Positions 6,574-25,759 of a stretch of 64,000 nt of DNA are shown here, one piece after another. The first letter of the stretch is position 1. The number at the start of each line of letters is the position of its first letter. Below the pieces are notes generated by a model that was given only the letters and a program-made list of their open reading frames with translations, had not been told where the DNA came from and ran no database searches. The stretch comes from an uncultured delta proteobacterium (GTDB lineage Bacteria > Myxococcota_A > Polyangia > Polyangiales > Houyiibacteriaceae). Location: NCBI GenBank assembly GCA_963699755.1, contig CAVOVB010000002.1, positions 1 through 64,000 on the forward strand. The letters are read 5' to 3'. The position numbers and the translations under genes were made by a program.

Positions 6574-6810
6574 GTGAGTTCTTCATCCCCTGTTTCAGAG
6601 CCCGCCTCCTCAGCAACGACGGCCGAAGAACGAGCATTGGCGCGCAAGCTGGTGCGACAGTGGGAAGAAGCTCAGGCGATTGCTACCAAATACGCCCTCG
6701 ATGTGAATGGAGTCTTGAACGTGATTCGGGGTCTGGCTCTAAGCCCGGCCGAGCGCATTGAACTTGGTCTTAGAGCTGCGGGGCTTCGCGATGTTGCTCA
6801 CCCCGGGTGA
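6574..6810 (+). CDS. Small helical protein, putative antitoxin partner of downstream NTase
   Basis: 78 aa; LSPAERI motif; overlaps the NTase start; TATACT -10-like hexamer just upstream. Confidence 0.55.
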   Translation: MSSSSPVSEPASSATTAEERALARKLVRQWEEAQAIATKYALDVNGVLNVIRGLALSPAERIELGLRAAGLRDVAHPG

Positions 6811-7261
6811 ACGTCGCTTCTTGCTGGAGCTTCATCAGCGCGGAATCCGCTACTTGTTGATCGGGGCAAGCGCCGCGAACGCCCAAGGAGCCCGGATTGC
6901 GACAGTCGACATGGACCTGTGGTTTGAGGACGCCACGGACCCTCGCATCGCAGAGGCTGCCAAGGCTGCAGGCGGCGTTTGGGTATCAGGAGCATTTGGG
7001 ATGCGGCCACCGCAAATCGGAGGGCTGGCGGACGCAGATCGATTCGATGTCGTCACTCATGCCGATGGCCTGGACTCATTTGAACGAGAATTCAGTCGAG
7101 CCAAGAGCATTGAGATTGACGAGATTGCGCTCAAGGTTCTGCCATTGGAGCGCATCATCGTGAGTAAACGCGCAGCGGGCCGATCGCGCGACTTGGCACA
7201 GATTCCGGCGCTTGAAGAAGCCCTCGCGGTTCTCAAAGAGAAGCCATCGGAAGCTCAGTGA
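6791..7261 (+). CDS. Nucleotidyltransferase, MenT/AbiEii-like putative toxin
   Basis: YLLIGASA...ATVDMD, DVV, IIVSKRAAGRSRDLAQ. Confidence 0.8.
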   Translation: MLLTPGERRFLLELHQRGIRYLLIGASAANAQGARIATVDMDLWFEDATDPRIAEAAKAAGGVWVSGAFGMRPPQIGGLADADRFDVVTHADGLDSFEREFSRAKSIEIDEIALKVLPLERIIVSKRAAGRSRDLAQIPALEEALAVLKEKPSEAQ

Positions 7262-7337
7262 GCGTGTCGGGCGAGCAATCGTGCCCCGACAATCATTCTT
7301 CGTTCCGTTGCGCCGCCGCAAACAAGGCGTGCAACGC

Positions 7338-7523
7338 CCAGACGTCCGCAAGCTCTTGCGTCACATCCGGCACGGGGATTTGTGACATTGTCATAAGAAT
7401 GTCCGGTAACGCGTTTTCTTCGTGTTCTTTGGACGTGTTCTCATCGATACCTGTCCGCGAAACCGTTCGAGAATCGTCTGAACGAGGTGAACAGCCGGCG
7501 GTTCGATTCCCACCGCCTCCACC
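7338..7523 (+). repeat. att junction 1: type-A arm plus tmRNA-like 3' end (core 7500-7523)
   Basis: GGTTCGATTCCCACCGCCTCCACC; upstream ~160 bp homologous to 10430-10590. Confidence 0.85.
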
Positions 7524-7554
7524 TATTCCTCGCGGCTCGTGAACATCGCGGCGC

Positions 7555-8793
7555 TTAGCCATTCCGACGCCGCAAGCGCAACATCACTAGAGCTGCGATG
7601 AGCCAAGCGGCGCCGTCGGACGGACTCTCTCTCACCGAGCATCCTGAACCGCCCCGAGCCATGGACTCGGAATCGGGCGGGGCGATCGAACGGCCGCTCG
7701 CCGCGAGGTCGAAGAGGAGAATACCTCGGCCTTCGGCCACCACGTCCCCATCGATGGAAAGCTGGAAGGCAAGGTGCGTCCCGTCGGGGTTCACCGTCGG
7801 ATTCGACGCGTACCAGCCTCGATAGCGGTTGAAGCGCGTGAGCCGATCCCAGGCTTGGGAGCCGTCGAGCGGCAGGAGCCATATGTCCAACGGGCCTGGT
7901 AAGAACAGGCCGTCGAGATCGCGCTCGACGAGGACCCACGCGCCATTCGGGGCGACGCCCTCCGCCTCCTCGTAGAAGGGGCTCTGGGAGTAGTTCGTCA
8001 CCAGCCCAGTCGAGAGGTCGACGCCCATGACCTCACCGCCCGCGTACGCGTACGCGGTGAAGATCAGCTCCTCGGTACCTGCGCGGAAGTCCTGCGCCTC
8101 GAGCACTGCGAACGGAAAGACCGCCGTGCGGTCGATCACCAGCTCGATGTTCTCGAGGAGGACGCGCTCGTCTTCGTAGCGTAGCTCGCCGGTCCAGATC
8201 TCCGATATGCCGTCCCGGACCCGGCTGAGCAGATCAGGGTCGGTGTAGTCGATGTCAGAGCGGTTCCACGCAATGCGCGGCGACACGTCCGACGTCACGA
8301 TTCCCTCCCAGCACGGCATGCCGAGCGGTTGCGGAGGATCTTCGAATGGCGTGCGCAGGACAGACATGACGCCGGTGAAGCGACCCGCTTCGGGACGGTC
8401 GTCACTCGGGCTCGGACCCGAGGTCGGGCCGCAGAGCAGCAGGTCGCCCGTCGGCAGGTAGTGGGCTCGCGTGAAGCCCATGTGCTCGAACCCGTCCGTC
8501 AGTCTCCGCATCGTCCCCGTCGCGATGTCGAGCTCGACGACATCGCCGAGAGGCGCTCCATCGATGAAGAGGATCCGCTCGCCGTCGGGTGACCAGTCAG
8601 GCCGAGAGCCGAAGTCAGTCAGCAGGCTGATGTACGGCGGCAGGTCGTCGAGGGGGGAGCCGTCGAGCGTCCCTCGTTCAGGGTCGCCGGGAGCCTGACC
8701 GATCGCCGGTGCGGGGACACAGACGAACGCAGCGATGGTTGCGAGCACTATAGCCGAGCTCAACATGTGGCCAGAGCCTACCATAACTCTCAT
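7555..8793 (-). CDS. TolB-like beta-propeller surface protein with MYXO-CTERM-type tail
   Basis: Signal peptide; PDWSPDGERI and NPTVNPDG repeats; C-terminal GGSGCSV...hydrophobic...RLRRR; start uncertain. Confidence 0.75.
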   Translation of the reverse strand: MRVMVGSGHMLSSAIVLATIAAFVCVPAPAIGQAPGDPERGTLDGSPLDDLPPYISLLTDFGSRPDWSPDGERILFIDGAPLGDVVELDIATGTMRRLTDGFEHMGFTRAHYLPTGDLLLCGPTSGPSPSDDRPEAGRFTGVMSVLRTPFEDPPQPLGMPCWEGIVTSDVSPRIAWNRSDIDYTDPDLLSRVRDGISEIWTGELRYEDERVLLENIELVIDRTAVFPFAVLEAQDFRAGTEELIFTAYAYAGGEVMGVDLSTGLVTNYSQSPFYEEAEGVAPNGAWVLVERDLDGLFLPGPLDIWLLPLDGSQAWDRLTRFNRYRGWYASNPTVNPDGTHLAFQLSIDGDVVAEGRGILLFDLAASGRSIAPPDSESMARGGSGCSVRESPSDGAAWLIAALVMLRLRRRNG

Positions 8794-8891
8794 CGCGGTT
8801 CGTGACGTGCGCGAATACGACACGAAGCGGCGTTCGTTCTTGCTACGCTCTCGGGACTGCGCGAGAAACAGCCGTCCCGATGTTTGGTCCA

Positions 8892-10022
8892 ATGAGAAAG
8901 CTGATCCCGCTCACCTTGGTGTTTGCATTCGCGTACGCGGTGCTCGGTCCATTGGGCTGCGGCGACAGTTCGGAGCAGAGCGCGCCGGCGATCGAGCATC
9001 CGTTTCGTCCACCCACAGGGTCGATCTACCTTCTTGCAGGGCAGGACTCGGAGCAGCTTGGAGCGATGCCTAGGGCGGGCTTCGCCGACGGATACCTCGA
9101 TCGCGTACCTGTCAGGCCAAGTGGGATTTCGCTCTACGGTGGCTTCCCCGAGCCGAATGCCAGCGAGGGATTCGACTCGCTTGCGTGGGTGCAGACCGCG
9201 AACGATTACATCGCGCTCGAAACGCTCGATGACACGATCTTCCACTTCTCGATCAACTGGGTGAACGAAGGGCAGGCGATCGCGGGTACCGACGAGGTCG
9301 TCGCGGCCGAGCAAGCCGTCCTCGAGGGGAAGCACGACGCCTTCATCGACTGGCTCGCGGACTGGTGTTCGGCCCAGCGCCTCCCGATCCTTCTGCGTCT
9401 CGGATACGAGTTCAACCGACCTGTCCAGGTGCTCTTCACCGAGGAGCGCTACGCGCCCGCCTACCGATACATCGTCGATCGGATGCGCGCTCGAGACGTT
9501 CAAGGCGTCGCCTTCGTTTGGGCTTCGGCGAACCTCAGCTTCAACCCCGACGGCCCACCGGAGCTCTGGGATTTCGATGCCTGGTACCCGGGCGACGACT
9601 ACGCCGATTGGTTCGGCTTCTCGATGTGGTTTCCCGACGTCCCCGATACAGTCATGCTCGACGAGGCGCGCGCTCGCGACAAGCCCGTCCTGCTCGCGGA
9701 AACGACACCTCTCGAGTTCAACGTCGGCGAACGCAGCTACTACCCGCTCTTCACAACCGAGGGCCAGATGCTGGACGCGGACGCAATCTGGGAAGCCTGG
9801 TGGCAGCCCATGTTCGACTTCGTCGAGCAGAACGCCGACATCATCGGCGGATGGCACTACATCGCGAACGACTGGGCCCTTGATCCGCTCTGGGGATCGA
9901 ATCCCCTTTTCCAAAACAGCGATGCGCGGGTCTGGGCAGACGACAGAATCCTGGAGCGATGGACGGAAGAGGCCTCGCGCGCACTCTTCGTGAAGCCGGT
10001 TCCGGGTCGTTTCGCCAGATAG
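8892..10022 (+). CDS. GH26-like glycoside hydrolase lipoprotein
   Basis: Lipobox LGC; LRLGYEFN, WYPGDDYADWFG, KPVLLAET (clan GH-A glutamates). Confidence 0.75.
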   Translation: MRKLIPLTLVFAFAYAVLGPLGCGDSSEQSAPAIEHPFRPPTGSIYLLAGQDSEQLGAMPRAGFADGYLDRVPVRPSGISLYGGFPEPNASEGFDSLAWVQTANDYIALETLDDTIFHFSINWVNEGQAIAGTDEVVAAEQAVLEGKHDAFIDWLADWCSAQRLPILLRLGYEFNRPVQVLFTEERYAPAYRYIVDRMRARDVQGVAFVWASANLSFNPDGPPELWDFDAWYPGDDYADWFGFSMWFPDVPDTVMLDEARARDKPVLLAETTPLEFNVGERSYYPLFTTEGQMLDADAIWEAWWQPMFDFVEQNADIIGGWHYIANDWALDPLWGSNPLFQNSDARVWADDRILERWTEEASRALFVKPVPGRFAR

Positions 10023-10089
10023 AAGCGATGGCGGATAGAGGCCGTTTCTTCTCTTGTGCCCAGCGTGCGAAGCTGTCGATTTCGTGGCG

Positions 10090-10125
10090 AGCTTGCTCGA
10101 CGAGGTTGGAGCCGAGGATGTCTGA
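10090..10125 (+). pseudogene. C-terminal stub of deleted nucleotidyltransferase
   Basis: Encodes SLLDEVGAEDV* versus DLLNEVRSEDV* of 24749-25303; same GAGGATGTCTGA stop/start overlap. Confidence 0.65.
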
Positions 10126-10369
10126 GATGAGTCCTATGATCCAAGAGCGGTACCGCGATATTCTGATGAAGCTTCCACCTGAGCAGAGGCTACTGCAGAG
10201 CTGCAGGATGTTTGCCACCGCAAAGCGCCTCGCCGAGAGCTCTATCCGATCGAAGCGAGCCGATCGGATAGACGAAGAAACCCTTGGTCGCGAGCTATTC
10301 CTCCGTCTCTATCGAACGGAGGTCCGCGGTCCTCTTCGGAGGATGGTCCTCGAGGGGCGCAAGCCATAG
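10118..10369 (+). CDS. Small helical protein (MenA1-like putative antitoxin), paralog of 25296-25550
   Basis: LMKLPPEQRLLQSCRMFATAKRLAESSIR...RELFLRLY closely matches 25296-25550. Confidence 0.75.
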   Translation: MSEMSPMIQERYRDILMKLPPEQRLLQSCRMFATAKRLAESSIRSKRADRIDEETLGRELFLRLYRTEVRGPLRRMVLEGRKP

Positions 10370-10429
10370 CAGCTCGATCCACTAACGCTCACGGGCTCGA
10401 CGAATCGCGTCGATCACCGAGAACATCGC

Positions 10430-10709
10430 ACCGACCTCCACGAGCTCCCGATTCACATCCGGGATTTGTGACATTGTCATAAGAATGTCCGGCACCGCGT
10501 TTTGTTGGTGTTCTTTGGACGTGTGTTGCTCGAACCCTGTCCGCGAAACCGTTCGAGAATCTTCGGAATCGGGTGTATCCCCGGCTGTTCGATTCCCACC
10601 GCCTCCACTACTTAAGACGAGTGATTGCTTGTGGTTAGCCACTTCGCCGATCGCCAGTGACCACGTAGTGGCCATCGTCGGCTCGTTTCGGCACCAGTTC
10701 GTCGAGTTT
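10430..10709 (+). repeat. att junction 2: type-A arm, tmRNA-like core (10587-10610) and downstream arm
   Basis: GTTCGATTCCCACCGCCTCCACTA; upstream matches 7338-7499; downstream matches 22438-22540. Confidence 0.85.
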
Positions 10710-10828
10710 GTGAACGTTTGGCCGGAGCCGTGGACGGCCTTGGGTACCTCGCCCGAGTCCACCCTTCGCTACTGCAACTTCAATGGCCGCGCCGCCGTCG
10801 AGAACGAAGTCGTCTCCGGGCCCAGGCG

Positions 10829-11668
10829 CTAGGCCGCCAGCGTGTCGAAATGTCCGAATGGGTCTTCCATCCAATCTCGGAGAATTCGATGCATCTTGGC
10901 AGCGTGCCCTCCGTCGAGAATGCGATGGTCGAATGTCGCGCCAACGTCCATCACTCTTCGCACGGCCAGTTGACCGTCCTCGACGACCGCTCGTTCTTCA
11001 ATCGACCCAAGCGCGAGCAACAGAGGCACACGGCTATACGGAACCAGCGGCACTAGTGCATACGGAAGCCCCAAGGAGCCGACGTTTGTGATCATGACCG
11101 AGCCGAAGAGGTCCTTCGGCATCCCGGCCCAGCTCATGTCGAGATTCAGCGTGTAGCTCAGAAAGCTCGTGAGTCGGAGCATGGGGCCCACGCCCCAGGA
11201 AGGGATGCGCGACATGAGGTCGCGCGAGGCCTTCAAGGCCTTGTCGGTGCCTCGGCGAACACCGCTCACTTTGGCCGAGAATTCGTCCACGATCTGCTCG
11301 AGCGTCTTTTCGTTTGGTTTCTGGATGGTTGCGCCGCTCAGGTCGATTTCGCCCGTCTTTGGGTTCTCCATCACGACCTGAAAGAAGACGCCAATGCTGT
11401 CGCGGAGATAGATTTGATTGAAGCGAAGCAGTGCGTTCGCATCCGGAACCTCTTCGAGCACGGCACCGACGGCCTTGGCGACCATGTGACTCACGGTGAG
11501 ATGTTTCCCGGTCTGTTTCCGGAAAGCATCGACGTACCGCAGAGCCTCGTCCATTTTGAGGCTCAAAACTCCATACACGGTTGGGTCGTACGGGGTATTC
11601 CAAGTCCCGAGAGCGCTCTTGCGAAACGCGGATAGCGTCTTCTTCTTGTGGAGCGGAAGATTCGGCAT
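10829..11668 (-). CDS. Stand-alone 2-oxoacid dehydrogenase E2-type acyltransferase catalytic domain
   Basis: GSVMITNVGSLG and TFDHRILDG; no lipoyl domain. Confidence 0.85.
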   Translation of the reverse strand: MPNLPLHKKKTLSAFRKSALGTWNTPYDPTVYGVLSLKMDEALRYVDAFRKQTGKHLTVSHMVAKAVGAVLEEVPDANALLRFNQIYLRDSIGVFFQVVMENPKTGEIDLSGATIQKPNEKTLEQIVDEFSAKVSGVRRGTDKALKASRDLMSRIPSWGVGPMLRLTSFLSYTLNLDMSWAGMPKDLFGSVMITNVGSLGLPYALVPLVPYSRVPLLLALGSIEERAVVEDGQLAVRRVMDVGATFDHRILDGGHAAKMHRILRDWMEDPFGHFDTLAA

Positions 11669-11720
11669 GGCGGAAGCATACGCCATCCCGCATACGAGGA
11701 GGAGGATCGTTCACGAATCC

Positions 11721-12136
11721 TGTGCCTCCTCAGAACCCCGCCGATGGCGCAATCGTTGGTGTTTCCGTACTCGGGGTCAAGCTAGCCTACCCCGATGCTT
11801 CACTTGCTGTACGTCCTGCTCGCGACCGCCAGATCGAGCCTGAAGCCGCGAGCGCGAGTCCGCCGATGGGGAGAAGGTCATCGCCCTCCCGATGGTCGGC
11901 GGACTGCATCATCTCTATGCACGACGCGCAGCCTGAGCGAAAGCCTCGGTCCCACACGACGTCGAGCGTGAGCATGAGCTGCGCGCACTGCGCGAGGCTA
12001 AGGCGCATTCCGCGCTCAATTCGCGCTTGTCGAGCCATCGGCAACGCACGTAAGGGTCCGAGCTCCGTCCGCTGGGTCACCTTCGCGATCATCGCGGCTC
12101 ATATCTCGCAGGCGGACAACGTTCTGAGGAACGACA
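11721..12136 (+). mobile_element. MITE-sized (416 bp) derivative of the TGT...ACA IS, copy 3
   Basis: TGTGCCTCCTCAGAAC ... GTTCTGAGGAACGACA; only the start and end of the transposase are kept. Confidence 0.8.
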
Positions 12137-12233
12137 GCACCGACAGCGAGTTTCTTGGGATCGAACCTCGCAAGGACGGGAAAAGTTTAGTCGGCGTGTT
12201 CACGGCTCGTCGCGGTGACTCCGTGACCTAAGC

Positions 12234-12890
12234 GTGCCAGGGACAATGATGGTCGCGCGAGGGAAAAAGCCGACGGCTCGTGGTTGGTCGCACGCCATCG
12301 CGGCGGTGATTGCGCTCGTCTTCAGCATCGCGATGGCAATGAAGACGTCGGCGAATGTTGAGCACATGCTCAGCGTCGTCGTTTTTGGCGCCAGCATGGT
12401 TCTGCTTTTTTCGATGAGCGCAGTTTACCATTTAGGCCGTTACTCAGACGGGGTGCGCCTAACGCTTCGCGCCATCGACCACTCAAACATTTATCTTCTC
12501 ATCGCGGGGACGTACACGCCGATCATCGTGATCGGTCTTGAAGGATGGCACAAGACCGTAGGTCTTTGGTCAATCTGGATCCTCGCGGTCGCGGGCGTTG
12601 TCTTCTCGGTCTTCGTGCGAGAGTCACCGCGTTGGGTTCGATTCGGCCTTTACATCGCGATGGGTTGGTTCTCGCTCTTCATCATTCCAGCCCTGTACAA
12701 AACGAGCGGCTCAGAACCGGTCGCCCTCATGGTCTGCGGCGGCGTACTCTACTCCGTAGGCGCGATCGTCTACGCAACCAAAAAACCCGATCCCTGGCCC
12801 GACACATTCGGCTTCCACGAAATCTTCCACGCGTTTGTCATCGCAGGTTGCGCGTGTTTTGCAGTGACGATTTGGATCTGGCTCTCTTAG
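12234..12890 (+). CDS. Hemolysin III / PAQR family membrane protein
   Basis: SAVYH, DHSNIYLLIAGTYTP, YIAMGW, FGFHEIFHAFV. Confidence 0.9.
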   Translation: MPGTMMVARGKKPTARGWSHAIAAVIALVFSIAMAMKTSANVEHMLSVVVFGASMVLLFSMSAVYHLGRYSDGVRLTLRAIDHSNIYLLIAGTYTPIIVIGLEGWHKTVGLWSIWILAVAGVVFSVFVRESPRWVRFGLYIAMGWFSLFIIPALYKTSGSEPVALMVCGGVLYSVGAIVYATKKPDPWPDTFGFHEIFHAFVIAGCACFAVTIWIWLS

Positions 12891-12926
12891 CCCATTGGTA
12901 CCATTTCCGAAGCGCAAGTGCGCGGT

Positions 12927-12943
12927 TGTGCCTCCTCAGAACC
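12927..12943 (+). mobile_element. Orphan left end of the TGT...ACA IS family
   Basis: TGTGCCTCCTCAGAACC identical to the end at 11721. Confidence 0.6.
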
Positions 12944-13226
12944 CCATCTCATCTCTCTCGGACTCGAAACAGGGTCTTTGGATCGACCAACCCCTACCCC
13001 GTTGAAGTCAAACCACGCGCAGCACGCCCCAGGCGCGACGAACGTCCGCCAGCCACTCATCCGGGCGCTGCAAGCTTGGGACACGTGTCCCGACTTGATC
13101 CGCCAACTTGGATTCACTGGGGTTTAGCGGGGTGTCAGCATCGAGACCCTTCCGCTGACCTGCCCTGGGAATTTCGGACCACGCGAAACGTGACGGACTG
13201 CCTCTTCGGGACCGTCCGGAGAGTGC

Positions 13227-13490
13227 ATGAGGAAGAGTCGATTTAGTGAAGAGCAGAAGGTGAAGATGGTGCGGGAGACCGACCAGAGCTCGGTCGCGGA
13301 AGTCGCCAAGAAGCACGGCGTGAGCGTTGAGACGCTGTACCGGTGGCGCCGGGCGTACGGCGGCATGGAGCTCCCCGAGGTCAAGCGCCTGAGGCAGCTT
13401 GAGCAGGAAAACACCCGGCTCAAGAAGCTGTTGGCGGAGCGCGACCTCGAGGTCGAGGTGATGAAGGAGATTGCCGCGAAAAAATGGTGA
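13227..13490 (+). CDS. IS3 transposase OrfA
   Basis: [10 protein letters not shown]...TLYRWRR...[14 protein letters not shown]. Confidence 0.9.
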
Positions 13491-14653: not shown

Positions 14654-14836
14654 CTAGGTCCGCTTGGCTTGACTACGGCGATCGTGGGGCTTGATCTTCC
14701 GTGCGCGTTTAGCGGCTTTGGCAAATCGCTTGGCCTCTTCGAGCCACGCCAAACGCTGGGCGGGCGTGAGTTGAAGCCAGGCCATTCGTTGCTCCTCCTC
14801 GTGGAGCTTCCAGCCGCGCCTATCCGCCGTCGTCAT
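14654..14836 (-). CDS. Small helical protein, putative antitoxin
   Basis: WLQLTPAQRLAWLEEA; overlaps the stop of the upstream NTase; start uncertain. Confidence 0.65.
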   Translation of the reverse strand: MTTADRRGWKLHEEEQRMAWLQLTPAQRLAWLEEAKRFAKAAKRARKIKPHDRRSQAKRT

Positions 14837-15344
14837 CTTGTTCCAGCATAGCATGCGCGATTTGATCAAGCTTCTCTATGTCGTCGAGGTCTTTGGGCCG
14901 GCCGGTGGTTTGCTTGAGAGACCGCAGGTCGTCCATTCCCACGACGTGCACCGTCGTGCCGTCATCCAGGACCGCGTCGAGCCGGCGAGACCAGGCCTCT
15001 TCGAAGTCGAACGGCTCTTCGACGAAGAGGTCGACCTCGGTGCCAAGGTAGCTCGGGCTCCACAGTGAGAACACGGTCAGCCCTTTCTCTTCGCGCCACT
15101 TCCTACGTACTTCGTCCTTCGCGAAGTCCTCTGCAGGAACCGGAGCACGGGGCCGATAGTCGAGCCTTTGCAGGGCCGCGATGGCGCCAAGTGCATTCGT
15201 CGGCGTCAGATCAAGAACAAGATCGAGGTCTGCCGTGAACCGGAGGTGACCGTGAAGGACGACCGCGACGCCGCCAACCGCGAGGTAGCGAACGTCCGCC
15301 TCATCGAGGACTCGAAAGATCTCAGAGAATGGACCCGTCGACAC
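14820..15344 (-). CDS. Nucleotidyltransferase, MenT/AbiEii-like putative toxin
   Basis: YLAVGGVAVVLHGHLRFTADLD, EVDLF, LKQTTGRPKDLDD. Confidence 0.85.
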   Translation of the reverse strand: MSTGPFSEIFRVLDEADVRYLAVGGVAVVLHGHLRFTADLDLVLDLTPTNALGAIAALQRLDYRPRAPVPAEDFAKDEVRRKWREEKGLTVFSLWSPSYLGTEVDLFVEEPFDFEEAWSRRLDAVLDDGTTVHVVGMDDLRSLKQTTGRPKDLDDIEKLDQIAHAMLEQDDDGG

Positions 15345-15398
15345 GGACGGAACGTATCACGCGACAGACCGATCACGCGCAGTAGCGGGGCGAACCGG

Positions 15399-15570
15399 GG
15401 GACCACATGGTGATTGGAGCGCAGGGCAAGCTGGGGGATTAGAGGATACTGCGGCGCGCGTGGGTAAGAGATCGCGATGCGCGCCCTCAACGGCGATATG
15501 TGGGAAAACCGAGTATCCGCGCAGGGTTAGCGTATCGATGACAGCAGGGTTCGATTCCAACCGCCTCGAC
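15399..15570 (+). repeat. att junction 3: type-B arm plus degenerate tmRNA-like core (15547-15570)
   Basis: AAAACCGAGTATCCGCGCAGGGTTAGCGTATCGATGACAGCAGGGTTCGATTCCAACCGCCTCGAC; aligns with 25547-25720. Confidence 0.85.
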
Positions 15571-16055
15571 TGGTGGGCCTCGAGCTGCTCGCTTCCCACC
15601 CGCAAGGTGGCCCGAACGTGCGCCTCGGTATGGCCCGCCGGGACCCCGTGATCCAAGATTCGAGCTTCCCCGCGCACCGACTCGGGAATGAGGAAGAAGT
15701 CTCCGGGCGCTGCGCCCGTGCCCGCGGTGGGAGGCGACCCTGGCAGGAGCGCGGTGACGACCGGCACGAAAGTCAGTGCCAAGGTCGCGAGACCGAGCAC
15801 CACCGCCGCGCCGACTTCCCAAGTGTGGGGAGCCGATTCGGACAACGACTTCGCCGCGTAGAAGCAGCATGCTCCGAGGAATACGACTGCGACAAGCAAA
15901 GCAGCGACCCGCTCGGACATCAGGCCCAGCGCGTACGACCCCATGAGAAGGCCGAGGACGACGATCCCGCTCATCGGGAGGAAGGGGCCACGAAGGTACT
16001 CTGCGTACCACAGCGGCACACGGGAAGGTTTCGGAGGTCGACTTGGGTTCGCCAT
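15571..16055 (-). pseudogene. Membrane protein truncated where it runs into att junction 3
   Basis: Three TM segments, then the frame reads straight into the repeat. Confidence 0.5.
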
Positions 16056-16129
16056 CGGAGCCCAGACTAGCGCAGCCGTCGGACCCGGGCGAGCTTGCTT
16101 CGCCGCGGCTGTTGTCGTCCGGTACGACA

Positions 16130-17570: not shown

Positions 17571-17951
17571 ATGACAATCGCTCCTGATGACGGGCGAGCC
17601 AGGCTCGCTCACTTTACGAGGCCGCGCGCTGACCACCTCGCCAGAAACGCCTAATGGCTCCGCGAGCTCGACCCTGCAAGGGATTTCATTCGGGTCGACC
17701 CAAGCGCGCAGGTGCGGCACTTCAGGAGCTGCTCACTCTGTTGTTCGTTCTTTTCGAAGTCTATGAGGGCCCAATCGCGGGGGACGCCCATCTCCTCAAA
17801 AAAATCGGCAGCTTCCAGCCATTCTGTGTCGCGTAAATCAGACAACAGAACTCGCAGCGGTCAGTCTTGCTCGACGCAGCTTCGAGGCCCACGCGACGGG
17901 CCAAGGTAGAAGCCATGGTCATTTCACTAGTTGTTTTTCGAAACCTATTAA

Positions 17952-19167
17952 TGCGGTGCCCCCAATCCTCGGTCCGGATCGAATGAAAAATTCGCCGTGC
18001 TCAGCCTTGGTTGATTCTCCTCTGAGCGCTCCCAGATTCAGGAGCCAAGCCGCCCCACGCGCTGTGTGGGCGCGGTTGATTGTAGTCGTCCTGCCATAGA
18101 CTAAGCGTTTGCTGGACATCGTCCAGCGACACGAACCAGTGTTGCGACAAGCACTCTCGCTGCAAGGTCCCGTTGAAGGCCTCGATGAGCGTTGTCGGTG
18201 GGTTTGCCCGGCCGACTGAAGTCCATTTCGACCCCGCAGTCGTACGCCCAGCGGTCCATGGCCTTTGAAGTGAGCTCGGTTCCATTGTCGACGCGGATGC
18301 GTTTTTGGTCGAGTGCCCCGCTCATGGATGGCGCGGCGCAGCCGTTGGGCGACTGGCTTGCCCCGAAAACTCCGTGCCGCCTCGAGCAGCAGACACTCCC
18401 GCGTGTATTCGTCCACGGCTGTCAGCACGCGGAAAGCTCGCCCATCGAAGAGCGCGTCATGAACGAAATCGAGCGCCCAGACCTCATTTGGGCCCGTGGC
18501 GGGTCGGCGCGGCTTGCGACGAACCGCGCTGCGGTGGCGACGCTTGCGCTGACGCCGCAAACTCAGGCCTTCGTCGTGATAGAGGCGGTAGACGAGCTTG
18601 TGGTTCACGTCCCAGCCTTCGCGCCGTAGCACCACTGCAGCTGCCGATACCCGGCTCGCACCCGAACCGCGGCGAGCTCTTTCATTCGCTTGCGTAGGGC
18701 TTGATGTTTGGGCCGGACGCGCTCGTAGCGGACCGCCGACCGCGCCGCTCGCTCAGCGAGTAAGCCTCTCGGACCCAGCCAACGAGCTTACGAGCGCGAC
18801 CCGGCCCTACCATTTTCTTTTGACGGGCTCGTGCAGGATGTCCTTGTCGAGCGCCAAGTCCGCAACGACTTGCTTCAATCGCCGATTCTCGTCGCGCAGT
18901 TGCTTCAGCTCCCGCAGCTCGCTCACCCCGAGGCCTGCGTGCTTGCACTTCCAGCGATACAACGTCGCCTGACTCACCCCGAGCTTGCGACATGTCTCGC
19001 CAGCGGGCGTCCCATCCTCGAGCCGTCGCGGCGCTCGGATGATTTGCTCGTCACTGAACTTACTCTTTCGCATCGGTCCCTCCTTCGGCCTTGGGCCGAG
19101 TCTATCGAGGGCCGAGCCCGGCCTCATTACGAGAATCGAAACGGACCGGTTTTCGGGGGACAGACCA
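17952..19167 (-). mobile_element. IS3-family element with frameshifted OrfB (inactive)
   Basis: OrfA MRKSKFSDEQI...; OrfB pieces WALDFVHD, RVDNGTE, IEAFNG...YNQPRPHS in three frames; ends TGGTCTGTCCCCCG.. / TGCGGTGCCCCC.. Confidence 0.85.
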
Positions 19168-19174
19168 GGGGGCT

Positions 19175-20428
19175 CTAGACGAAAACCTCGATCCGATTGT
19201 CGGACAGTCGATGCTCGACCTGATGCAGTTTCATGAGAGGCTTGGGCTTGCCTTTTGGTTTGGTCCCGACGAACTCGCCGTGGGTGTTGAAGTAGAAATG
19301 GTGAAATGGGCAGGCCAGGCAGTCGTCTTCGAGCTTGCCCCCGTGGCCGAGGTGGGCGCCCTGATGCGGACAGTGAGCCTCGAAGATGCGGAGCTCTCCG
19401 TTTGAAGCGCGGTACACGACCACTTCCTCACCGGCGACCGTGTACGTGTGCACTTTGCCAGCCTTGATCTCCTCGTCGCGGCCGAGGAGGATCCACCGCT
19501 TCTGTTCTTCCGCTTTGATGGGCTGCGGAGGTTGCTCGAAATCCTTCAAGTAGTACTGGCTCATCCACTCGCGGATCCGCACGATGTCCGCTTCGCCCGG
19601 CAGAAGCTTCGGGTCCTTGAGCGAGCGTTTATGACGCCAGATGCGGTAGTCCCCTTCGGTGTCATCCGCACCCGCCTTGACGATGGCGCGCGACAGTAGA
19701 TCGTGGAGGGAGATGAACGGGTTCAAACGAAACAGAGTGCGCAGCCACGATGGAAGTGTCGATTCGTCGATGCTCGCGGCGAGGTGCAGCTTGAGGTCGT
19801 CGTCTCCAATAGGCGTGAACGCGAGCACGAGCTGCGCTTGGAGCCCCCCATTGGTGCAGATCTGCCCGGCGCCGAATCCGGGGCCGTGGAACGCCAAGTC
19901 TTGGCGATAGTCGGACACGGGCAGAAGGCGGGAGAGCGTTCTCTTCAAGCCGCTTTCCGAACTGCCAGCATAAGACACCACGCCCCTCATGTTTAGGCGG
20001 AATACGCGGTCGGTATACGTGTGGTCGGAGATGCTCACCGAGTGCCATCGGTGCACTGTCTTGAAGTGGATCTCGTCTCCGTTGTTTTCGATTAGATCCA
20101 AGAGATTGGTGTCCTTAAACACGCGCGGGTTGCCGATGCAAAAGTCGCGGCCGAATGAGCGATCGAACAGAACGGGGAAAGGCCAGGCGGGCTCGTTCAG
20201 GTCGTCACCGAACCAAACGCAGACGAACCCGTACTGCAACGTGACCTGCATAGCGTGGACGCCTTCGTAGCGAACCACGTAACCCGGCTCCTCGGGCGAA
20301 GCTTCGACGGTCACGAACGAATCGAGAAATGGAACCCTTGGCGACTTCAAGGCTGGAAGATCGCGCACGGGGATCACGTTGAACCAGCTGTTGTGTTTCT
20401 GCGGACGAATATACTTGGGACTGCTCAT
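19175..20428 (-). CDS. Rieske oxygenase/desaturase (KshA/Neverland-like) with C-terminal Rieske domain
   Basis: ENNGDEIHFKTVH mononuclear-iron motif; CPHQGAHL...CPFH at the C-terminus. Confidence 0.75.
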   Translation of the reverse strand: MSSPKYIRPQKHNSWFNVIPVRDLPALKSPRVPFLDSFVTVEASPEEPGYVVRYEGVHAMQVTLQYGFVCVWFGDDLNEPAWPFPVLFDRSFGRDFCIGNPRVFKDTNLLDLIENNGDEIHFKTVHRWHSVSISDHTYTDRVFRLNMRGVVSYAGSSESGLKRTLSRLLPVSDYRQDLAFHGPGFGAGQICTNGGLQAQLVLAFTPIGDDDLKLHLAASIDESTLPSWLRTLFRLNPFISLHDLLSRAIVKAGADDTEGDYRIWRHKRSLKDPKLLPGEADIVRIREWMSQYYLKDFEQPPQPIKAEEQKRWILLGRDEEIKAGKVHTYTVAGEEVVVYRASNGELRIFEAHCPHQGAHLGHGGKLEDDCLACPFHHFYFNTHGEFVGTKPKGKPKPLMKLHQVEHRLSDNRIEVFV

Positions 20429-20450
20429 GATGCTCTCTGGGTGGCTCAGG

Positions 20451-21551
20451 TCAGGCCGCCAATACCACCTTCAAGTCGACCTTGAGGCCCTCGTAGAGGA
20501 TTTTGCCGAGCGAGCCCTCGGCGTACGGGAGCTCGTACTTCTCGCAGAGCGCCCTGACTCGGTCGCTCGCCTCGTCAAGCTTTCTGCTGGAGAGGAACGG
20601 AAAGAGATGATGCTCGATGTGTTTGTCGAAGCCACCGATGTAGGCACGATCCCAGGGGTAGTCGATGTTGCCCGCGTTCAGCACCGAGTTGATGTAGAAG
20701 TGAGCTCTGCTCGAAGGGTCGTACTCCTTGATGTGCAAGCTGACGCTGTCATCGCGGATGTGGGTGGACTTACCCAGGATGCCGCTGATGATTTCGGCAA
20801 AGAGAAATGAAAGGAGATTGCCGGCCAGCACCCTCGGCGCATTCAGGCCGGCCTCGAGCGGCAGTTCGACGAATTCCTTTCGCGCGAGCGCCTTGTCGTA
20901 CGCGAACAGGTCTTTCCACGCGTCGTCGTCAAACTCGCTGACCTTCTTGGCTTCGACGATGCCGATGAAGAATAGGGAGTGGAAGTTCTTGATGTGCGCA
21001 CTGATGAGGCCGCTGATTCGGTCGCCCTTCTCCGCGAAGAAATCGTTGCTCACCCGTTGGTTCGTCGGCGTGGCCTCGGGGTCCATCCCGAACACGCCTG
21101 GATGCTTGTGGTGAAAGCGGTTGTGTCCGATCTCCCAGTGCTTGTCCAAGATGAAGAGCGGCATGTACCAACCCTTGCGTCCCTGGAACTGCGGATCGGG
21201 ATGGGTGCTGTAGGACCCGTGCAGCACCTCGTGCCCGAGACAGAATTGCGCGAACCGCGATCGCCCCAACAAGAACGCTCCCTTCACGAAGGAGACGGGC
21301 CCGATCCGAGATCGCAAGAGCTTCCTGCCGCGGTTCTCGTCGGCTTTGAACTTCTCGTACAACGCGGAAGCGTATTGATTATCGAGCTCCCTCGACGTGG
21401 CCTCCTTGTGCTCTGAGACGAGGTCTCGGAGAAGCGCGTCGAAATCCTCTTGGATCTTCTTCTGCGTCTCCGCGTCCCATTTCTGCATGGGGTTCGGTCG
21501 CTTCACTCGCCGCTGGATGAACCCGGGATCGATGGCGGGCGCTGCTTGCAT
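20451..21551 (-). CDS. Fatty acid desaturase-family protein
   Basis: His boxes HEVLH, HNRFHH, HIEHH; GAGAGG RBS before ATG at 21551. Confidence 0.8.
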   Translation of the reverse strand: MQAAPAIDPGFIQRRVKRPNPMQKWDAETQKKIQEDFDALLRDLVSEHKEATSRELDNQYASALYEKFKADENRGRKLLRSRIGPVSFVKGAFLLGRSRFAQFCLGHEVLHGSYSTHPDPQFQGRKGWYMPLFILDKHWEIGHNRFHHKHPGVFGMDPEATPTNQRVSNDFFAEKGDRISGLISAHIKNFHSLFFIGIVEAKKVSEFDDDAWKDLFAYDKALARKEFVELPLEAGLNAPRVLAGNLLSFLFAEIISGILGKSTHIRDDSVSLHIKEYDPSSRAHFYINSVLNAGNIDYPWDRAYIGGFDKHIEHHLFPFLSSRKLDEASDRVRALCEKYELPYAEGSLGKILYEGLKVDLKVVLAA

Positions 21552-21565
21552 GTGGCCGTCCTCTC

Positions 21566-21624
21566 GAATATGAAAACGATTCGTATTTTGAACGGCTATC
21601 ATAAACTGAAAAAAATTCATATTC
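21566..21624. promoter_or_regulatory. AT-rich divergent promoter with two putative TetR operators
   Basis: GAATATGAA-N5-TTCGTATTT and AAACTGAA-N5-TTCATATTC imperfect palindromes. Confidence 0.55.
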
Positions 21625-21643
21625 TAAAATGGTGAGCGATTCC

Positions 21644-22282
21644 ATGGAGCAGGCCGTCAGGCCCGCGCGCAACGCCTGTCGGAAGCCCCAGCAGGAGCGC
21701 GCGAAGGCTAAGTACGACGCGATCTTGCAGGCGGCGATCCGCGTTCTCGTGGAGGAAGGATACTCGGACTCCTCCACGGTGAAGATCGCGCGGGCCGCCG
21801 GTGTGAGCGTCGGTACCGTGTACGCCTACTTCAGCGACAAGGACGAGATCTTCTCGACCTATGTCGACACCCGGATCGGCGAGATCTTGGAGGCCATCGC
21901 GTCCAACGTGTCGATGTCGAGCTACGCCACGGTCGAGGAGGGGATTCGCGACGTGGTCGGCACGGCCGTGACCTTCACGATGAACAACAAAAAGACCCTG
22001 AGCGCGATGGTCGGAAGGATCCCCGGCGTCTACGACGGGATGATGCTCCAAGGCATCATGCCCCTACTCTATCCCGTGGCCGAGCGGTTCTATCGAGCGC
22101 ACGGCCTCGTGCGGAACGAGACGGAAGCTCGCCGGCTCACCTATGTATTGTCGAGTGCCGTCACTGGATTCTTCATTCGACTGCTTACCGACCCCGACCA
22201 GCCGCTCGACGAGGAAGACATCGCCGACGAGCTCGTGGCGCTGATGATGGGTTACATCGTCCGGTACCGCGACAGCAGATGA
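21644..22282 (+). CDS. TetR-family regulator
   Basis: ILQAAIRVL..EGY...IARAAGVSVGTVYAYFSDKDEI. Confidence 0.9.
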   Translation: MEQAVRPARNACRKPQQERAKAKYDAILQAAIRVLVEEGYSDSSTVKIARAAGVSVGTVYAYFSDKDEIFSTYVDTRIGEILEAIASNVSMSSYATVEEGIRDVVGTAVTFTMNNKKTLSAMVGRIPGVYDGMMLQGIMPLLYPVAERFYRAHGLVRNETEARRLTYVLSSAVTGFFIRLLTDPDQPLDEEDIADELVALMMGYIVRYRDSR

Positions 22283-22344
22283 ACTCGCGACGGCGGGGTG
22301 CAGCTCCAACGCGCCGATACACCCCGGCTTCCGAAGTTAGGTTC

Positions 22345-22540
22345 CGTGCGTTTGATAGCGATGCGCAGCAAAACCGAGTGTCCGCGTAGGGTTAGCGTAT
22401 CGCTGACAGCAGGGTTCGATTCCCACCGCCTCCACCAATCAAGACAAGTGATTGCTATGGGTCAGCAATTCCGCCGATCGCGAGGGACCAAATAGTGACC
22501 ATCGGCGGCTGGTCTCGGCGCGGGTTCGTCGAGTGTGGCG
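22345..22540 (+). repeat. att junction 4: type-B arm, tmRNA-like core (22412-22437) and downstream arm
   Basis: GGGTTCGATTCCCACCGCCTCCACCA ending in CCA; flanks match the other junctions. Confidence 0.9.
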
Positions 22541-22590
22541 ACGGCCTGATTGATCCGGCACTCGCTCAAATGGGCGTAGTAGATCATCGT
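22462..22590 (-). pseudogene. C-terminal remnant of a tyrosine integrase
   Basis: My translation: TMIYYAHLSECRINQAVATLDEPAPRPAADGHYLVPRDRRNC*; resembles the T-x-x-Y-A-H catalytic Tyr box. Confidence 0.65.
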
Positions 22591-22727
22591 CGCCTCCCTG
22601 TCGGGAGGTCGACATCAACGCCCTTCTAGGTTCGCGTCCCTCCTAATCTCTGCCGGTCGCCAACTCGACAGCCCTCTATTGATTGCCCTGGCTCACCGTT
22701 CGCCTGCTCAGACAGGCGCGCTGACGC

Positions 22728-23303
22728 CTAGCGCGTCCAGGCTTCGAGTAACGCGTCGAGGCCGGCGAGCGCCCACTGCTCGGGTCCTCCGGGGACGGAT
22801 GCGGGGCTCGAGCGCATCCCCGCCAGCTCTCCGAAGCCCCGCACCATCGCCCACGCGATCATGCAGCGCTGGCGGATCACTTGGATGTCGGGCTCGCCGG
22901 GGCACGCCGCCGCGATCGCCTCTCGCAGAGATGCGAAGCGCTCCGCGGCCAACGTTTGGAGCTCGGCACTCGCCGCCTTCGGCACAGCGCCGTGGGCGAG
23001 GACGTACAGACCGGGATGCTCGGCGCGCAATCGCAGGTGCGCGCGGGCCAACGCGTACAGGCGAGCCTTCGGGTCGCCGGCTGACTCGTCGTGCACCCAC
23101 TGCGCTTCGCGGCGCAGACCCTCGGCGGCCAACGCGGCCTCGAGCGCTTCCTTGTTTGCGAAGCACAGATACGGCGCCTGACGGCTAACCCCAGCCCGGG
23201 CCGCGAGCGCTCGCAGGGTCAGCGCACCCACTCCGGACTCGTCCACAAGACGAGCCGCCTCGGCAAGCAGACGTTCGCGAAGGTCCTCGGAGCTCGGTGG
23301 CAC
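22728..23303 (-). CDS. TetR-family regulator
   Basis: LTLRALAARAGVSRQAPYLCFANKEAL. Confidence 0.85.
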   Translation of the reverse strand: MPPSSEDLRERLLAEAARLVDESGVGALTLRALAARAGVSRQAPYLCFANKEALEAALAAEGLRREAQWVHDESAGDPKARLYALARAHLRLRAEHPGLYVLAHGAVPKAASAELQTLAAERFASLREAIAAACPGEPDIQVIRQRCMIAWAMVRGFGELAGMRSSPASVPGGPEQWALAGLDALLEAWTR

Positions 23304-23360
23304 TTGACTTAGTCAACCATAACCCATATCGTCCAAATTCTCCACTTGACTTAGTCAACC
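23301..23360. promoter_or_regulatory. Two identical palindromic operators
   Basis: CACTTGACTTAGTCAACC at 23301-23318 and 23343-23360, each containing TTGACT-T-AGTCAA, between divergent tetR and hydrolase genes. Confidence 0.75.
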
Positions 23361-23377
23361 CACCGCGAGAAGCCATC

Positions 23378-24259
23378 ATGACCAGCCTCGTACCGCTCAT
23401 CCACCTGATCCCCACCCGCCTCGGCCCTCTGCACGTGCGCGACAGCGACAGCGACGGCGACGGCCCGGCCCTGCTGCTGTGGCACAGCCTATTCGTCGAC
23501 GGGCGCTCGTTCGACGCACTGCTGCCGTTGCTTCCGAAGGGCTACCGCCTGCTGTGCGTGGACGGACCGTGCCACGGCCGTAGCCCGGGACCCCAGCACC
23601 GGTTCGACCTCGACGATTGCGCGGACGCGGCGGTGCAACTGCTCGACGCCCTGGCGATCGATCGCGTGCACTGGATCGGAAACGCGTGGGGCGGGCACGT
23701 CGGCGCCGTGCTCGCGTCTCGGCCCGACTCACCGGTGGCCTCGCTCGTGGCGATGTGCTCGCCGATGCAGGCGCTGACCGGACGGCTCAAGTACGTCACG
23801 CTGGTGCTGCTGTATGCACTCATCGGGGTACGCGGCCCGGTGCTGCGGGGACTGCTCGATGCTCTCTTGCACCCCGACCGCCGTGCCGACGATCCGGCGT
23901 TGGAGCGCTACGTCGTTGACGTCGTCTCGTCAGACGACCGCCGACCGATGCTTCGCGCAATGCGGTCGGTGATGCTCGGCCGCAAGTCCCTGATCGACCG
24001 ACTGCCCGACGTGCGGTGCCCGACCCTTTTTGTGACCGCCGAAGATCCGATGTGGACGCCTCATGTCGTGCGCGCGCAAGCGGAAAAACTCCCCAACGGA
24101 CACATGCGCGTGATGACCGGTGTGCGCCACCTGCCGCCGCTCGAAGACCCGACCGCAACGGCCGAGATCCTCGCTGAATGGCTGGCGGATCTGTCGCTAC
24201 GGGGCGTGGGCGAACGTCCGGTGGGTCTCGCCGCTCCGGAGCTCGTCGAGGGCAGATAG
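23378..24259 (+). CDS. Alpha/beta-fold hydrolase with atypical nucleophile elbow
   Basis: DGPCHGRS, HWIGNAWGG, CPTLFV, RHLPPLEDP. Confidence 0.85.
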   Translation: MTSLVPLIHLIPTRLGPLHVRDSDSDGDGPALLLWHSLFVDGRSFDALLPLLPKGYRLLCVDGPCHGRSPGPQHRFDLDDCADAAVQLLDALAIDRVHWIGNAWGGHVGAVLASRPDSPVASLVAMCSPMQALTGRLKYVTLVLLYALIGVRGPVLRGLLDALLHPDRRADDPALERYVVDVVSSDDRRPMLRAMRSVMLGRKSLIDRLPDVRCPTLFVTAEDPMWTPHVVRAQAEKLPNGHMRVMTGVRHLPPLEDPTATAEILAEWLADLSLRGVGERPVGLAAPELVEGR

Positions 24260-24266
24260 GCGAAGC

Positions 24267-24470
24267 TCATGCCTCGTAGCGTTGAAGAAGCTCGTCTGCC
24301 CGCCCGCGCGCTCGCGCGCGGCGCGCGGACCGCCGTATCATGGGCGCCAACAGGCGCAGCGGTCCCGCCAGGATCGACGGATCCCATTCGGTGAGTAGCG
24401 CCAGATCTTCGAGACGCTTCGGCAGGCCGTTCGCTCGGACCTGACCGTCGCGCGCCAGGCCGAAGAGCAA
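24267..24470 (-). pseudogene. C-terminal fragment, probably of a cupin-domain protein
   Basis: LFGLARDGQVRANGLP..LEDLALL resembles cupin-protein C-termini from memory; no N-terminus. Confidence 0.4.
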
Positions 24471-24691
24471 TCGTCATTCCGGAGGAGGTCCGTAAGGAGC
24501 TCGGCCTAGAACCCGGTGCTCAGTTCGTCGTCATGGGTGAGGGCGACGTCGTGATCCTGAAGAAGATCGAGGCTCCCGACAGGCAAGAGTTCCTCGCGCT
24601 GGCCCGCAAGGTTCGAACTCAGGCTCGGAAGGCCGGAGTCAAGCGCTCTGACTTGAAGAAAGCAATCCGCGCCTCCCGTCGTCGCGGATGA
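24470..24691 (+). pseudogene. AbrB/MazE/SpoVT-type antitoxin lacking its first residues
   Basis: IVIPEEVRKELGLEPGAQFVVMGEGDVVILKKI...RRRG*; not in the ORF track; stop overlaps an ATGA start stub. Confidence 0.75.
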
Positions 24692-24748
24692 GAGCGGCGA
24701 TCCTACCCGGAGCGCCGAAGCGCTCGGTGCATATGCTACGGTCACCGC

Positions 24749-25303
24749 GTGGACGAGCTGTTCGAATTCCTGGTGCTCATCGCGGAACGTCTCGACCGCG
24801 CTAACATTCCATACATGCTCAGCGGCTCGGTCGCATTGAGCACGTACGCACAGCCCCGGATGACTCGAGACATTGATTTCGTGATTGAAATCGACGAAGC
24901 GCAAGTCGACAAGTTCGTCGAGCTTTTCGAAGCGGACTGCTACATCGATCGCGAATCGGTGCTCGAAGCGGCGCGGGCCCCGGGCATGTTCAACATCATT
25001 CACGAGGCCTGGATTATCAAGGCCGACTTCGTCGTCAGAAAGGATGAGCCGTATCGAAAGACGGAGTTCGACCGACGGCGCACGGTATCCATTGGTGGCA
25101 AGGCGTTTTCGATTGTCACGGCAGAGGACCTGCTTCTCTCGAAGCTGCTTTGGGCCAAGACAAGCCGATCTGACCTGCAACTCGGCGACGTCAGAAACCT
25201 GATCCTCTCGGAAAAAGATCTCGATTGGCCTTACATCGAGCGCTGGGCGGAGAAGCTGGGCGTGGTAGATTTGTTGAACGAGGTGCGAAGCGAGGATGTC
25301 TGA
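24749..25303 (+). CDS. Nucleotidyltransferase, MenT-like putative toxin
   Basis: YMLSGSVALSTYAQPRMTRDID, KADF, TAEDLLLSKL...QLGD. Confidence 0.85.
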   Translation: MDELFEFLVLIAERLDRANIPYMLSGSVALSTYAQPRMTRDIDFVIEIDEAQVDKFVELFEADCYIDRESVLEAARAPGMFNIIHEAWIIKADFVVRKDEPYRKTEFDRRRTVSIGGKAFSIVTAEDLLLSKLLWAKTSRSDLQLGDVRNLILSEKDLDWPYIERWAEKLGVVDLLNEVRSEDV

Positions 25304-25550
25304 CACGGCGCCGGTGATCGAGAAGCTGTACCACGAAATGCTAATGCGCCTCACGCCGGAGCAAAGGTTTCTTCAGACCTGCAGGATGTTTACCACCGCG
25401 AAGCGACTCGCCGAAAGCTCCATCCGAGGCGCTTCGGCTGGACCCCTGGACGACGAAATGCTCCGCCGAGAGTTATTCCTTCGTCTTTATGGAAGAGAAG
25501 TCCGTGGTCCTCTCCGCGAAATGGTCCTCGCGGGACACAAGTCCGAGTGA
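25296..25550 (+). CDS. Small helical protein (MenA1-like putative antitoxin)
   Basis: 8-bp overlap with the NTase; LMRLTPEQRF...RRELFLRLYG. Confidence 0.75.
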   Translation: MSDTAPVIEKLYHEMLMRLTPEQRFLQTCRMFTTAKRLAESSIRGASAGPLDDEMLRRELFLRLYGREVRGPLREMVLAGHKSE

Positions 25551-25750: not shown

Positions 25751-25759
25751 CTCCACATT

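Follow-up and report, generated by a model that had tools for sequence, protein, structure and literature searches.

Why do predicted nucleotidyltransferase (NTase) genes, each coupled to a gene for a small protein, stand beside partial copies of the transfer-messenger RNA (tmRNA) gene, ssrA, in an uncultured delta proteobacterium, and what keeps them there? The stretch that raises this question, called the window below, opens contig C2 (CAVOVB010000002.1, positions 1 to 64,000) of a 5.35-Mb assembly with 11 contigs (GCA_963699755.1), whose closest homologues carry source names that indicate Myxococcales/Polyangiales. On its plus strand lie six copies of the tmRNA 3′ 25-mer, referred to as cores, at positions 7500, 10586, 15548, 22413, 25696, and 34686. 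An initial annotation had placed MenAT-like modules beside four of these six cores, and this was borne out: 145 to 238 bp from a core lie three intact pairs and, in the fourth case, a small gene accompanied by an NTase stub. What stands out is that the ssrA array is found across the genus and that many kinds of toxin-antitoxin (TA) modules occupy its junctions, and we lean slightly toward the view that MenAT1-type modules arrived on stacked small ssrA-integrative elements and lie beside the junctions through erosion that stopped at the pair.

The first module consists of S1 (6574..6810, plus strand), an open reading frame for a 78-residue candidate antitoxin with the motif LSPAER, whose homologues precede relatives of N1, and of N1 itself, which lies downstream and overlaps it (6791..7261, plus strand) and encodes a 156-residue, DUF2204-like NTase with a TM1012/MenT1-type fold and the residues G25ASA, T38VDMD, and K126. 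In the second, S4 (10118..10369, plus strand), an orphan S3-type candidate antitoxin of 83 residues (LPPEQR; 65% identity to S3), follows a stub at 10087..10125 (plus strand) that was recognized by DNA alignment with N3/S3 as the end of an N3-type NTase gene; the small gene is kept, as had been claimed, and the stub amounts to about the last 13 codons by DNA likeness, from about 10087, rather than the 11 first given. The third module, on the minus strand, pairs N2 (14820..15344), a 174-residue DUF6036 NTase with G24GVA, T37ADLD, and K144, with the overlapping downstream gene for S2 (14654..14836), a 60-residue candidate antitoxin with the motif LTPAQR. The fourth comprises N3 (24749..25303, plus strand), a 184-residue MenT1-like NTase with G26SVA, T39RDID, and K132, and downstream of it S3 (25296..25550, plus strand), an 84-residue candidate antitoxin (LTPEQR) from a family related to Rv0078B (MenA1). 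Thus, the coordinates and motifs of three NTases that share a pattern, each overlapping a small L-(S/T/P)-P-x-x-R gene, were confirmed. The modules are separated from their cores by 238, 216, 203, and 145 bp; when 500-bp stretches were drawn at random from this genome, 2.0% of 20,000 draws had a tRNA end or a core no more than 700 bp away. N1, S4, and N3/S3 are oriented toward their cores and N2/S2 transcription runs away from its core; the gene order varies as well, S1 being 5′ of its NTase and S2 to S4 being 3′.

Profile comparisons indicated that the N1, N2, and N3 families are homologous (97% and 92% probability). In Pfam, N2 matched DUF6036 above the cut-off, N1 and N3 gave weak matches to DUF2204, NTP_transf_5, and AbiEii, and NCBIfam and PADLOC scans of eight window proteins returned nothing of note. 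The closest characterized system is MenAT1 (Rv0078B-Rv0078A) of Mycobacterium tuberculosis (PDB 8an4, 8an5, and 8rr5; PMC10435456, PMC11375011). In the accessible parts of these two papers, MenT1 is described as tailing the majority of tRNAs, CTP being its preferred nucleotide, and as nontoxic in E. coli (PMC10435456), with T39 as the phosphoacceptor, D41-x-D43 binding magnesium, and K137 binding phosphates (PMC11375011). The predicted model of N3 (pLDDT 94) had MenT1 as its top Foldseek match (E 2e-9, TM 0.77), and by VIA MenT1 also came first, with a Z score of 17.9 and a root mean square deviation (rmsd) of 3.1 over 177 aligned residues, the next family reaching a Z score of 13.5. MenT1 was furthermore the best PDB sequence for the N3 profile (E 2.6e-7) and for the N2 profile (E 4.8e-6), the latter likeness coming from the profile and not from a fold model. 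Sequence identity to MenAT1 is 16 to 19%, and N3 has the motif R-x-T-R-D-x-D in common with MenT1. The threonine and the first aspartate of T-x-D-x-D were invariant in all three NTase family alignments (85, 95, and 54 rows), while the second aspartate and the distal lysine were conserved in at least 90%. The motif could be aligned to MenT1 for N3 and N2, with the threonine and first aspartate corresponding to T39 and D41, and the conserved lysine is presumably the counterpart of K137. On its predicted fold, a MenAT1-like N3/S3 is supported, and N2 is probably MenT1-like from its profile.

The small partners are coupled to their NTases well beyond the window. An S3-like gene overlaps the NTase stop codon in 73 of 78 distant N3 loci from many phyla, 15 of 16 loci with an N2 relative have an S2-like gene 3′ of it, and in 3 of 5 distant loci with an N1 relative an S1-like gene lies 5′ of it. 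PF18993, the family related to Rv0078B/MenA1, was matched by 38 of 74 S3-family members at E ≤ 0.1 (best, 2e-7), and two of four rescanned distant members scored above its curated cut-off; when the S3 profile was searched against PDB sequences, MenA1 was not found. No HTH (helix-turn-helix) family match was obtained for the 60- to 84-residue partners, and S1 had no Pfam match of note. A type IV AbiE assignment was rejected on these grounds, as the accessible text of PMC10435456 describes the AbiEi-type antitoxins, MenA3 and MenA4, as two-domain, winged-helix proteins of about 200 to 300 residues. Away from contig ends, we counted 32 intact pairs, 4 loci with an intact small gene and a broken NTase, none of the reverse kind, and 2 in which both genes were decayed. 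The relative G044 has a gene near-identical to S4 beside an intact NTase. The 4:0 loss asymmetry has the direction expected of toxin and antitoxin, although the cases are few and the indication is weak. N3/S3 is very probably a TA pair, and N2/S2 is probably one too.

For N1 a different identity has to be weighed, namely that it (and perhaps N2) is a nontoxic small-molecule NTase like LnuA, ANT(2″), or TM1012, with the small gene as a regulator or leader. LnuA, ANT(2″)-Ia, and TM1012 (PDB 2ewr, 4fo1, and 5cfu for TM1012, LnuA, and ANT(2″)-Ia, respectively) have the same compact fold, and in structure comparisons with the predicted N1 model (pLDDT 92) they stood above or beside MenT1, which ranked 10th by Foldseek; the N1 family profile did not find MenT1 among PDB sequences. 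However, the threonine is invariant in the N1 family as in MenT1 and is absent from the T-x-D-x-D position of TM1012, the best structural match of N1. N1 has a coupled small partner in distant genomes, and in one relative locus S1 is retained with N1 reduced to 19 codons. We know of no coupled small helical partner for the TM1012, LnuA, and ANT(2″) enzymes. We consider the small-molecule reading improbable, and N1/S1 as a TA pair somewhat favored.

Several results speak against assigning all modules to the MenAT1 type. TM1012 was the nearer structural neighbor of the N1 model (Z 12.2; MenT1, Z 10.8, rmsd 4.2, 138 residues aligned). S3 and S4 themselves had no Pfam family match, and PF18993 was matched by none of 16 S2-family and none of 4 S1-family sequences; the S1 and S2 profiles met S3 only on a short L-(S/T)-P-x-x-R-L stretch (probability 42% and 32%). 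The MenAT likeness proposed in the initial annotation stood for N3/S3 by fold and partner family and probably for N2, and it was weaker for N1 and for the partner families of N1 and N2. S1 and S2 families may be distant MenA1 relatives or separate solutions; in Protein Atlas they met only unnamed clusters (0.80 to 0.84), which serve as leads only. N3/S3 resembles MenAT1 in the N3 fold, the R-x-T-R-D-x-D motif, the PF18993 match of the S3 family, the two-gene overlap, and the lack of an evident DNA-binding domain. The differences are the downstream position of the antitoxin in N3/S3 and N2/S2 (in the accessible portion of PMC10435456, it is upstream in 15 of 21 MenA1 homologues), the identity given above, S1 and S2 that are not detectably MenA1, and the location at ssrA junctions.

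To see how general the junction position is, we turned to the genus, where the core was matched in 51 of 55 genomes, in many of them 4 to 16 times, with no match for the reversed control. Distances were measured in a core-selected sample of 35 pieces from 25 genomes, the window being excluded. Nine of 16 NTase modules lay within 300 bp of a core, against a null mean of 2.7 within arrays, and none of 2,000 shuffles reached 9; among other genes, 59 of 343 did so. The distances are fixed within families (N1 to core, 244 to 248 bp; S3 end to core, 151 bp in all six pieces with a core; N4, about 30 bp). Among 111 NTase matches in the fetched genus pieces, 28 were within 600 bp of a core and 11 near another tRNA end, 45 were near neither, and 27 had short flanks. 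Outside the genus, no stand-alone core-like fragment was found beside the module in the 78 distant N3 loci, and 21 of the 24 N1/N2 loci were examined and showed no core link. The expected enrichment of homologues beside att cores therefore held within the genus and not outside it.

The effect is not confined to NTases. By gene clustering, the most recurrent core neighbors were HigB/HigA, MazE-type/PIN, YafQ/HTH, addiction-module/ParE-like, RHH-like/ParE, and RES/Xre pairs, in addition to the NTase pairs (we assigned the RHH label and one of the ParE labels ourselves, and the Pfam scan of array gene clusters covered 243 of 292 small representatives and none of 171 large ones). Non-NTase TA modules lay within 300 bp of a core in 25 of 32 cases (null, 5.7), and 37 of 102 cores had a TA neighbor. 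Since HigAB, VapBC-, RelE/ParE-, and RES-type pairs are equally close, the effect belongs to TA modules generally and not to tRNA-end enzymes. In the window, N3 is preceded by a MazE/AbrB-type antitoxin remnant (24470..24691, plus strand) that is 5′-truncated and lacks its PIN partner and is 92% identical to an intact gene in G066, which matches PF04014. The arrangement is clearest in G042:C172 (L120, L121), where 22 kb of array contain eight cores along with eight TA modules or remnants, of which five belong to the NTase type.

These findings bear on the suggestion that tmRNA-end copies share a transcript with the module and function as RNA antitoxins or as decoy substrates of the NTase. N1, S4, and N3/S3 do face their cores, and behind S3 a T-arm hairpin can form by fold prediction, with 5 of 7 acceptor positions pairing with arm B. 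However, CCA is the ending of only one of the four module-adjacent cores, that at 25696 (the last bases of the tmRNA gene are CTA), and in relatives CCA was found at 9 of 26 NTase-side cores versus 21 of 52 cores without TA. A module lies upstream on the same strand at only 8 of 26 cores, there is no true acceptor 5′ strand upstream, as the initial annotation had already conceded, and the non-NTase TAs behave alike. We give the decoy little weight, because other TA types share the positions, modules flank cores on either side, and CCA is not enriched; it is a highly improbable role, and the special link proposed between a tRNA-end toxin and CCA-ending tmRNA fragments found no support. The NTase-bearing cores of relatives had the module upstream at 12 and downstream at 14, so that its fixed place at one end of each mini-island applies in the window and not to the relatives. 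A preference of NTases for tRNA loci was likewise rejected, since 39 of 111 NTase matches were near a core or tRNA end, but so were 8 of 30 HigB loci (from 37 matches) and 5 of 30 ParE loci (from 74).

How the pairs came to lie beside junctions is suggested by the structure of the units. Direct ssrA 3′-end repeats bound them; each core is preceded by one of roughly four conserved arms and followed by one of three integrase-side arms, or by the cargo directly. The integrase is beside the left end in some units and absent in others. G013:C92 reads core-integrase-S1/N1-arm A-core, with 86.6% identity to window 6538-7522. In G063 the order is integrase-xis-ParE pair-arm A, and this pair and arm recur in G008 without the integrase, while N3/S3 and N2/S2 stand alone in 0.9- to 1.2-kb core-to-core units of G011, G043, G045, and G052. 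A long integrase was kept in 8 of 76 units (only long matches were counted, and some matches across cores are gene-caller read-through). Core-to-TA gaps are nested (HigA, 25 to 85 bp; MazE, 87 to 256 bp; N3, 131 and 215 bp), the longer ones retaining parts of the integrase-side arm, and a recognizable arm of this kind is absent at 70 of 137 cores. A TA pair was present in 14 of 19 core-to-core units of 0.3 to 2 kb versus 18 of 47 longer units.

The series from elements with integrase and TA to TA-only cassettes of about 1 kb, together with the nested deletion ends, therefore points to an erosion halted by addiction. In this scheme, tyrosine-integrase elements would insert successively at the ssrA 3′ end, each leaving a core copy and its own att arm, and deletions would strip the integrase and other cargo. 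Losing the pair would free the toxin, so that erosion would trim down to the pair, the other side being bounded by the core or att arm. By analogy with MenT1, as described in the accessible parts of PMC10435456 and PMC11375011, the NTase would extend tRNA 3′ ends with pyrimidines and thereby prevent charging, and the small helical protein would bind the NTase and trigger self-phosphorylation of the T-x-D-x-D threonine. That addiction explains the junction position of the pairs is, on balance, a shade better than an even chance.

Two accounts do without addiction as the preserving force. In the first, a few ancestral elements carried a TA pair beside the att arm and the pattern was simply inherited; the fixed geometry within families fits this, and kin are not independent. 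The pattern is, however, shared by about ten TA families that are unrelated and by four types of arm, nested deletion ends converge on the pair, and short units are mostly TA, which makes hitch-hiking unlikely. In the second, phage defense, by abortive infection or tailing of phage tRNAs, preserves the pairs and the ssrA array is a defense store. MenT toxins are AbiEii homologues for which a defense role has been suggested (accessible text of PMC10435456), and N3 has faint AbiEii matches. This account is also unlikely, as there was no PADLOC match of note, the non-TA array cargo is mostly metabolic, transport, or regulatory, and defense by itself gives no reason for closeness to cores.

The addiction reading has its own difficulties. 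The assembly has 9% contamination, and its single ssrA gene lies on contig C8, separate from the array of the window on C2. Six of the 35 pieces were picked after NTase matches had been seen in them, and the TA queries were drawn from the same arrays. NTase matches near no core or tRNA end number 72 of 111, including the 27 with short flanks. Kin share junctions and identical distances, so that perhaps six or seven independent associations remain. The 4:0 loss asymmetry is weakened by the NTase gene being the larger target, and since broken toxins and lone antitoxins exist, escape from addiction happens.

Some units may still be mobile. In G011 and G023 the same HigAB-arm C unit of 1,023 bp, its left junction nearly identical, precedes different neighbors, and in sequencing run X1 one contig connects arm B with the 7500 core and the cargo of that core. 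On contig C8 (minus strand, 1-5750), behind ssrA, the first island after the tmRNA gene contains an intact 368-residue integrase and an excisionase-like gene; with MobC- and relaxase-like genes, so labeled by sequence reading, it is likely an integrative mobilizable element and could be an in-trans helper for the array. The HigAB unit, the X1 contig, and the few units that keep a long integrase are consistent with an active integron-like platform, in which in-trans integrases would excise and reinsert cassettes of 1 kb while those with a TA pair would slow excision, as in the chromosomal integrons of Vibrio (such braking is reported for chromosomal integrons in the accessible part of PMC13108822). 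However, the left junctions vary and keep integrase-side remnants, which is deletion-like and unlike the fixed ends of captured cassettes, about half of the cores (the 70 of 137 above) lack the integrase-side arm that excision may need, and among contigs from four DNA sequencing runs none spanned the stretch and no circle was seen. We rate such a platform as quite unlikely. IntI, attI, and attC did not turn up, no dedicated search having been made.

The preferred reading, erosion to the TA pair, has partial precedents. As far as the accessible text of PMC3146451 goes, Dehalococcoides has stacked ssrA islands and cis-mobilizable elements bounded by repeats of about 20 bp, 15 of 31 of which are without an integration module, and in these respects it resembles the present array. 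It differs in its serine recombinase and dehalogenase cargo (PMC3146451, same portion); here several integrases of the tyrosine type have arms of their own, units can be as short as 0.8 to 1.3 kb, and TA pairs are the commonest junction cargo. The TA cassettes of chromosomal integrons (accessible part of PMC13108822) and the HipAB pair that stabilizes island CGI48 after excision (PMC8978831, accessible part) are alike in that many self-contained TA modules stand in a recombination array and are likely stabilizing. Unlike in integrons, the junctions here are double-stranded tmRNA-end att sites with integrase arms, and the units look eroded, not captured. In a literature search that could reach few subscription papers, no paper was found on TA-rich ssrA arrays in Myxococcota or on DUF6036 together with nucleotidyltransferase, and the readable supplements of PMC10435456 had no match for Myxococc, Polyang, or DUF6036.

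Over dozens of genomes, the natural series from integrase-bearing elements to bare TA cassettes allows a much-debated idea, that chromosomal TA pairs persist because they prevent their own deletion, to be tested at one locus. A likely function can be offered for the DUF6036/DUF2204 nucleotidyltransferases, and the three small partner families are test cases for antitoxin-induced self-phosphorylation beyond the mycobacterial example. A broader joint reading is tentative, and we think it rather doubtful: the locus would be a live integron-like array at the tmRNA 3′ end, in which 1-kb TA cassettes from eroded elements are moved in trans and guard against collapse, the commonest toxins would be an unstudied radiation of MenT1-like tRNA-tailing enzymes, and these would be inactivated by at least three unrelated mini-antitoxins that have in common a single L-(S/T)-P-x-x-R-L helix and a single phosphoacceptor threonine.

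Further NTase types occur in the arrays of the genus. A fourth pair, N4, with DUF6036/AbiEii matches and an 85-residue partner without a Pfam family, ends about 30 bp behind cores in G058:C262 (L144:2080-2887) and also in G022, G041, G052, G057, G068, G006, G042, and G011, with differing upstream arms; N5 and N6 types are present as well. Away from ssrA, NTase homologues are often near tRNA genes, in 11 of 83 cases in the genus and in 4 of 78 distant ones (L040, L042, L043, and L081), the latter lying within about 410 bp on the tRNA 5′ side; 5 of the 78 distant N3 loci hold an intact tRNA gene, these 4 included. In G063:C1:255000-272000 (L235), an N1/S1 pair lies about 1 kb from the duplicated 3′ end of another tRNA-like sequence; here the pair is on an island that occupies another site. 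In G012:C400 and G012:C481, cores recur every 114 bp, and no genes were called in the intervals.

Within the window, the junctions beside the modules comprise a type-A att arm and core at 7332..7524 (core, 7500-7524, by core matches and arm conservation), a type-A arm and core at 10421..10610 (core, 10586-10610) followed by an integrase-side arm remnant, a type-B arm and degenerate core at 15395..15572 (core, 15548-15572), and a type-B arm and core at 25551..25720 (core, 25696-25720), all on the plus strand. The two cores without an NTase module, also on the plus strand, have type-B arms: one, at 22341..22596 (core, 22413-22437), carries a 42-codon remnant of the 3′ end of a C8-type integrase, and the other lies at 34587..34710 (core, 34686-34710). 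At 46274..46413 (plus strand), a degenerate seventh core (46274-46298) is followed by a decayed N2 copy (46324-46413; 72% over 90 nucleotides, E 3e-9), which, like the MazE/AbrB-type remnant, the initial annotation had overlooked; a core-less fragment of a type-B arm was seen at 37122-37195. An Rfam scan of the window gave nothing relevant, and promoter/terminator counts in 6300-26000 were no higher than chance.

On contig C1, 436772-441184, a type-A arm and core stand far from ssrA and 4.3 kb from an N1 3′-end remnant, likely an element at a secondary site. Decayed insertion-sequence copies lie within the islands of the window at 853-1650, 5760-6535, 11716-12135, 13227-14311, and 17919-19073. 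Further cargo at 7555-10022, 19175-22282, 28457-33881, and 35172-36865 includes a GH26 hydrolase, a Rieske oxygenase with a desaturase and TetR, an ECF sigma factor with FecR, and TetR/OsmC/MAPEG genes, and part of this non-TA cargo recurs next to cores in relatives.

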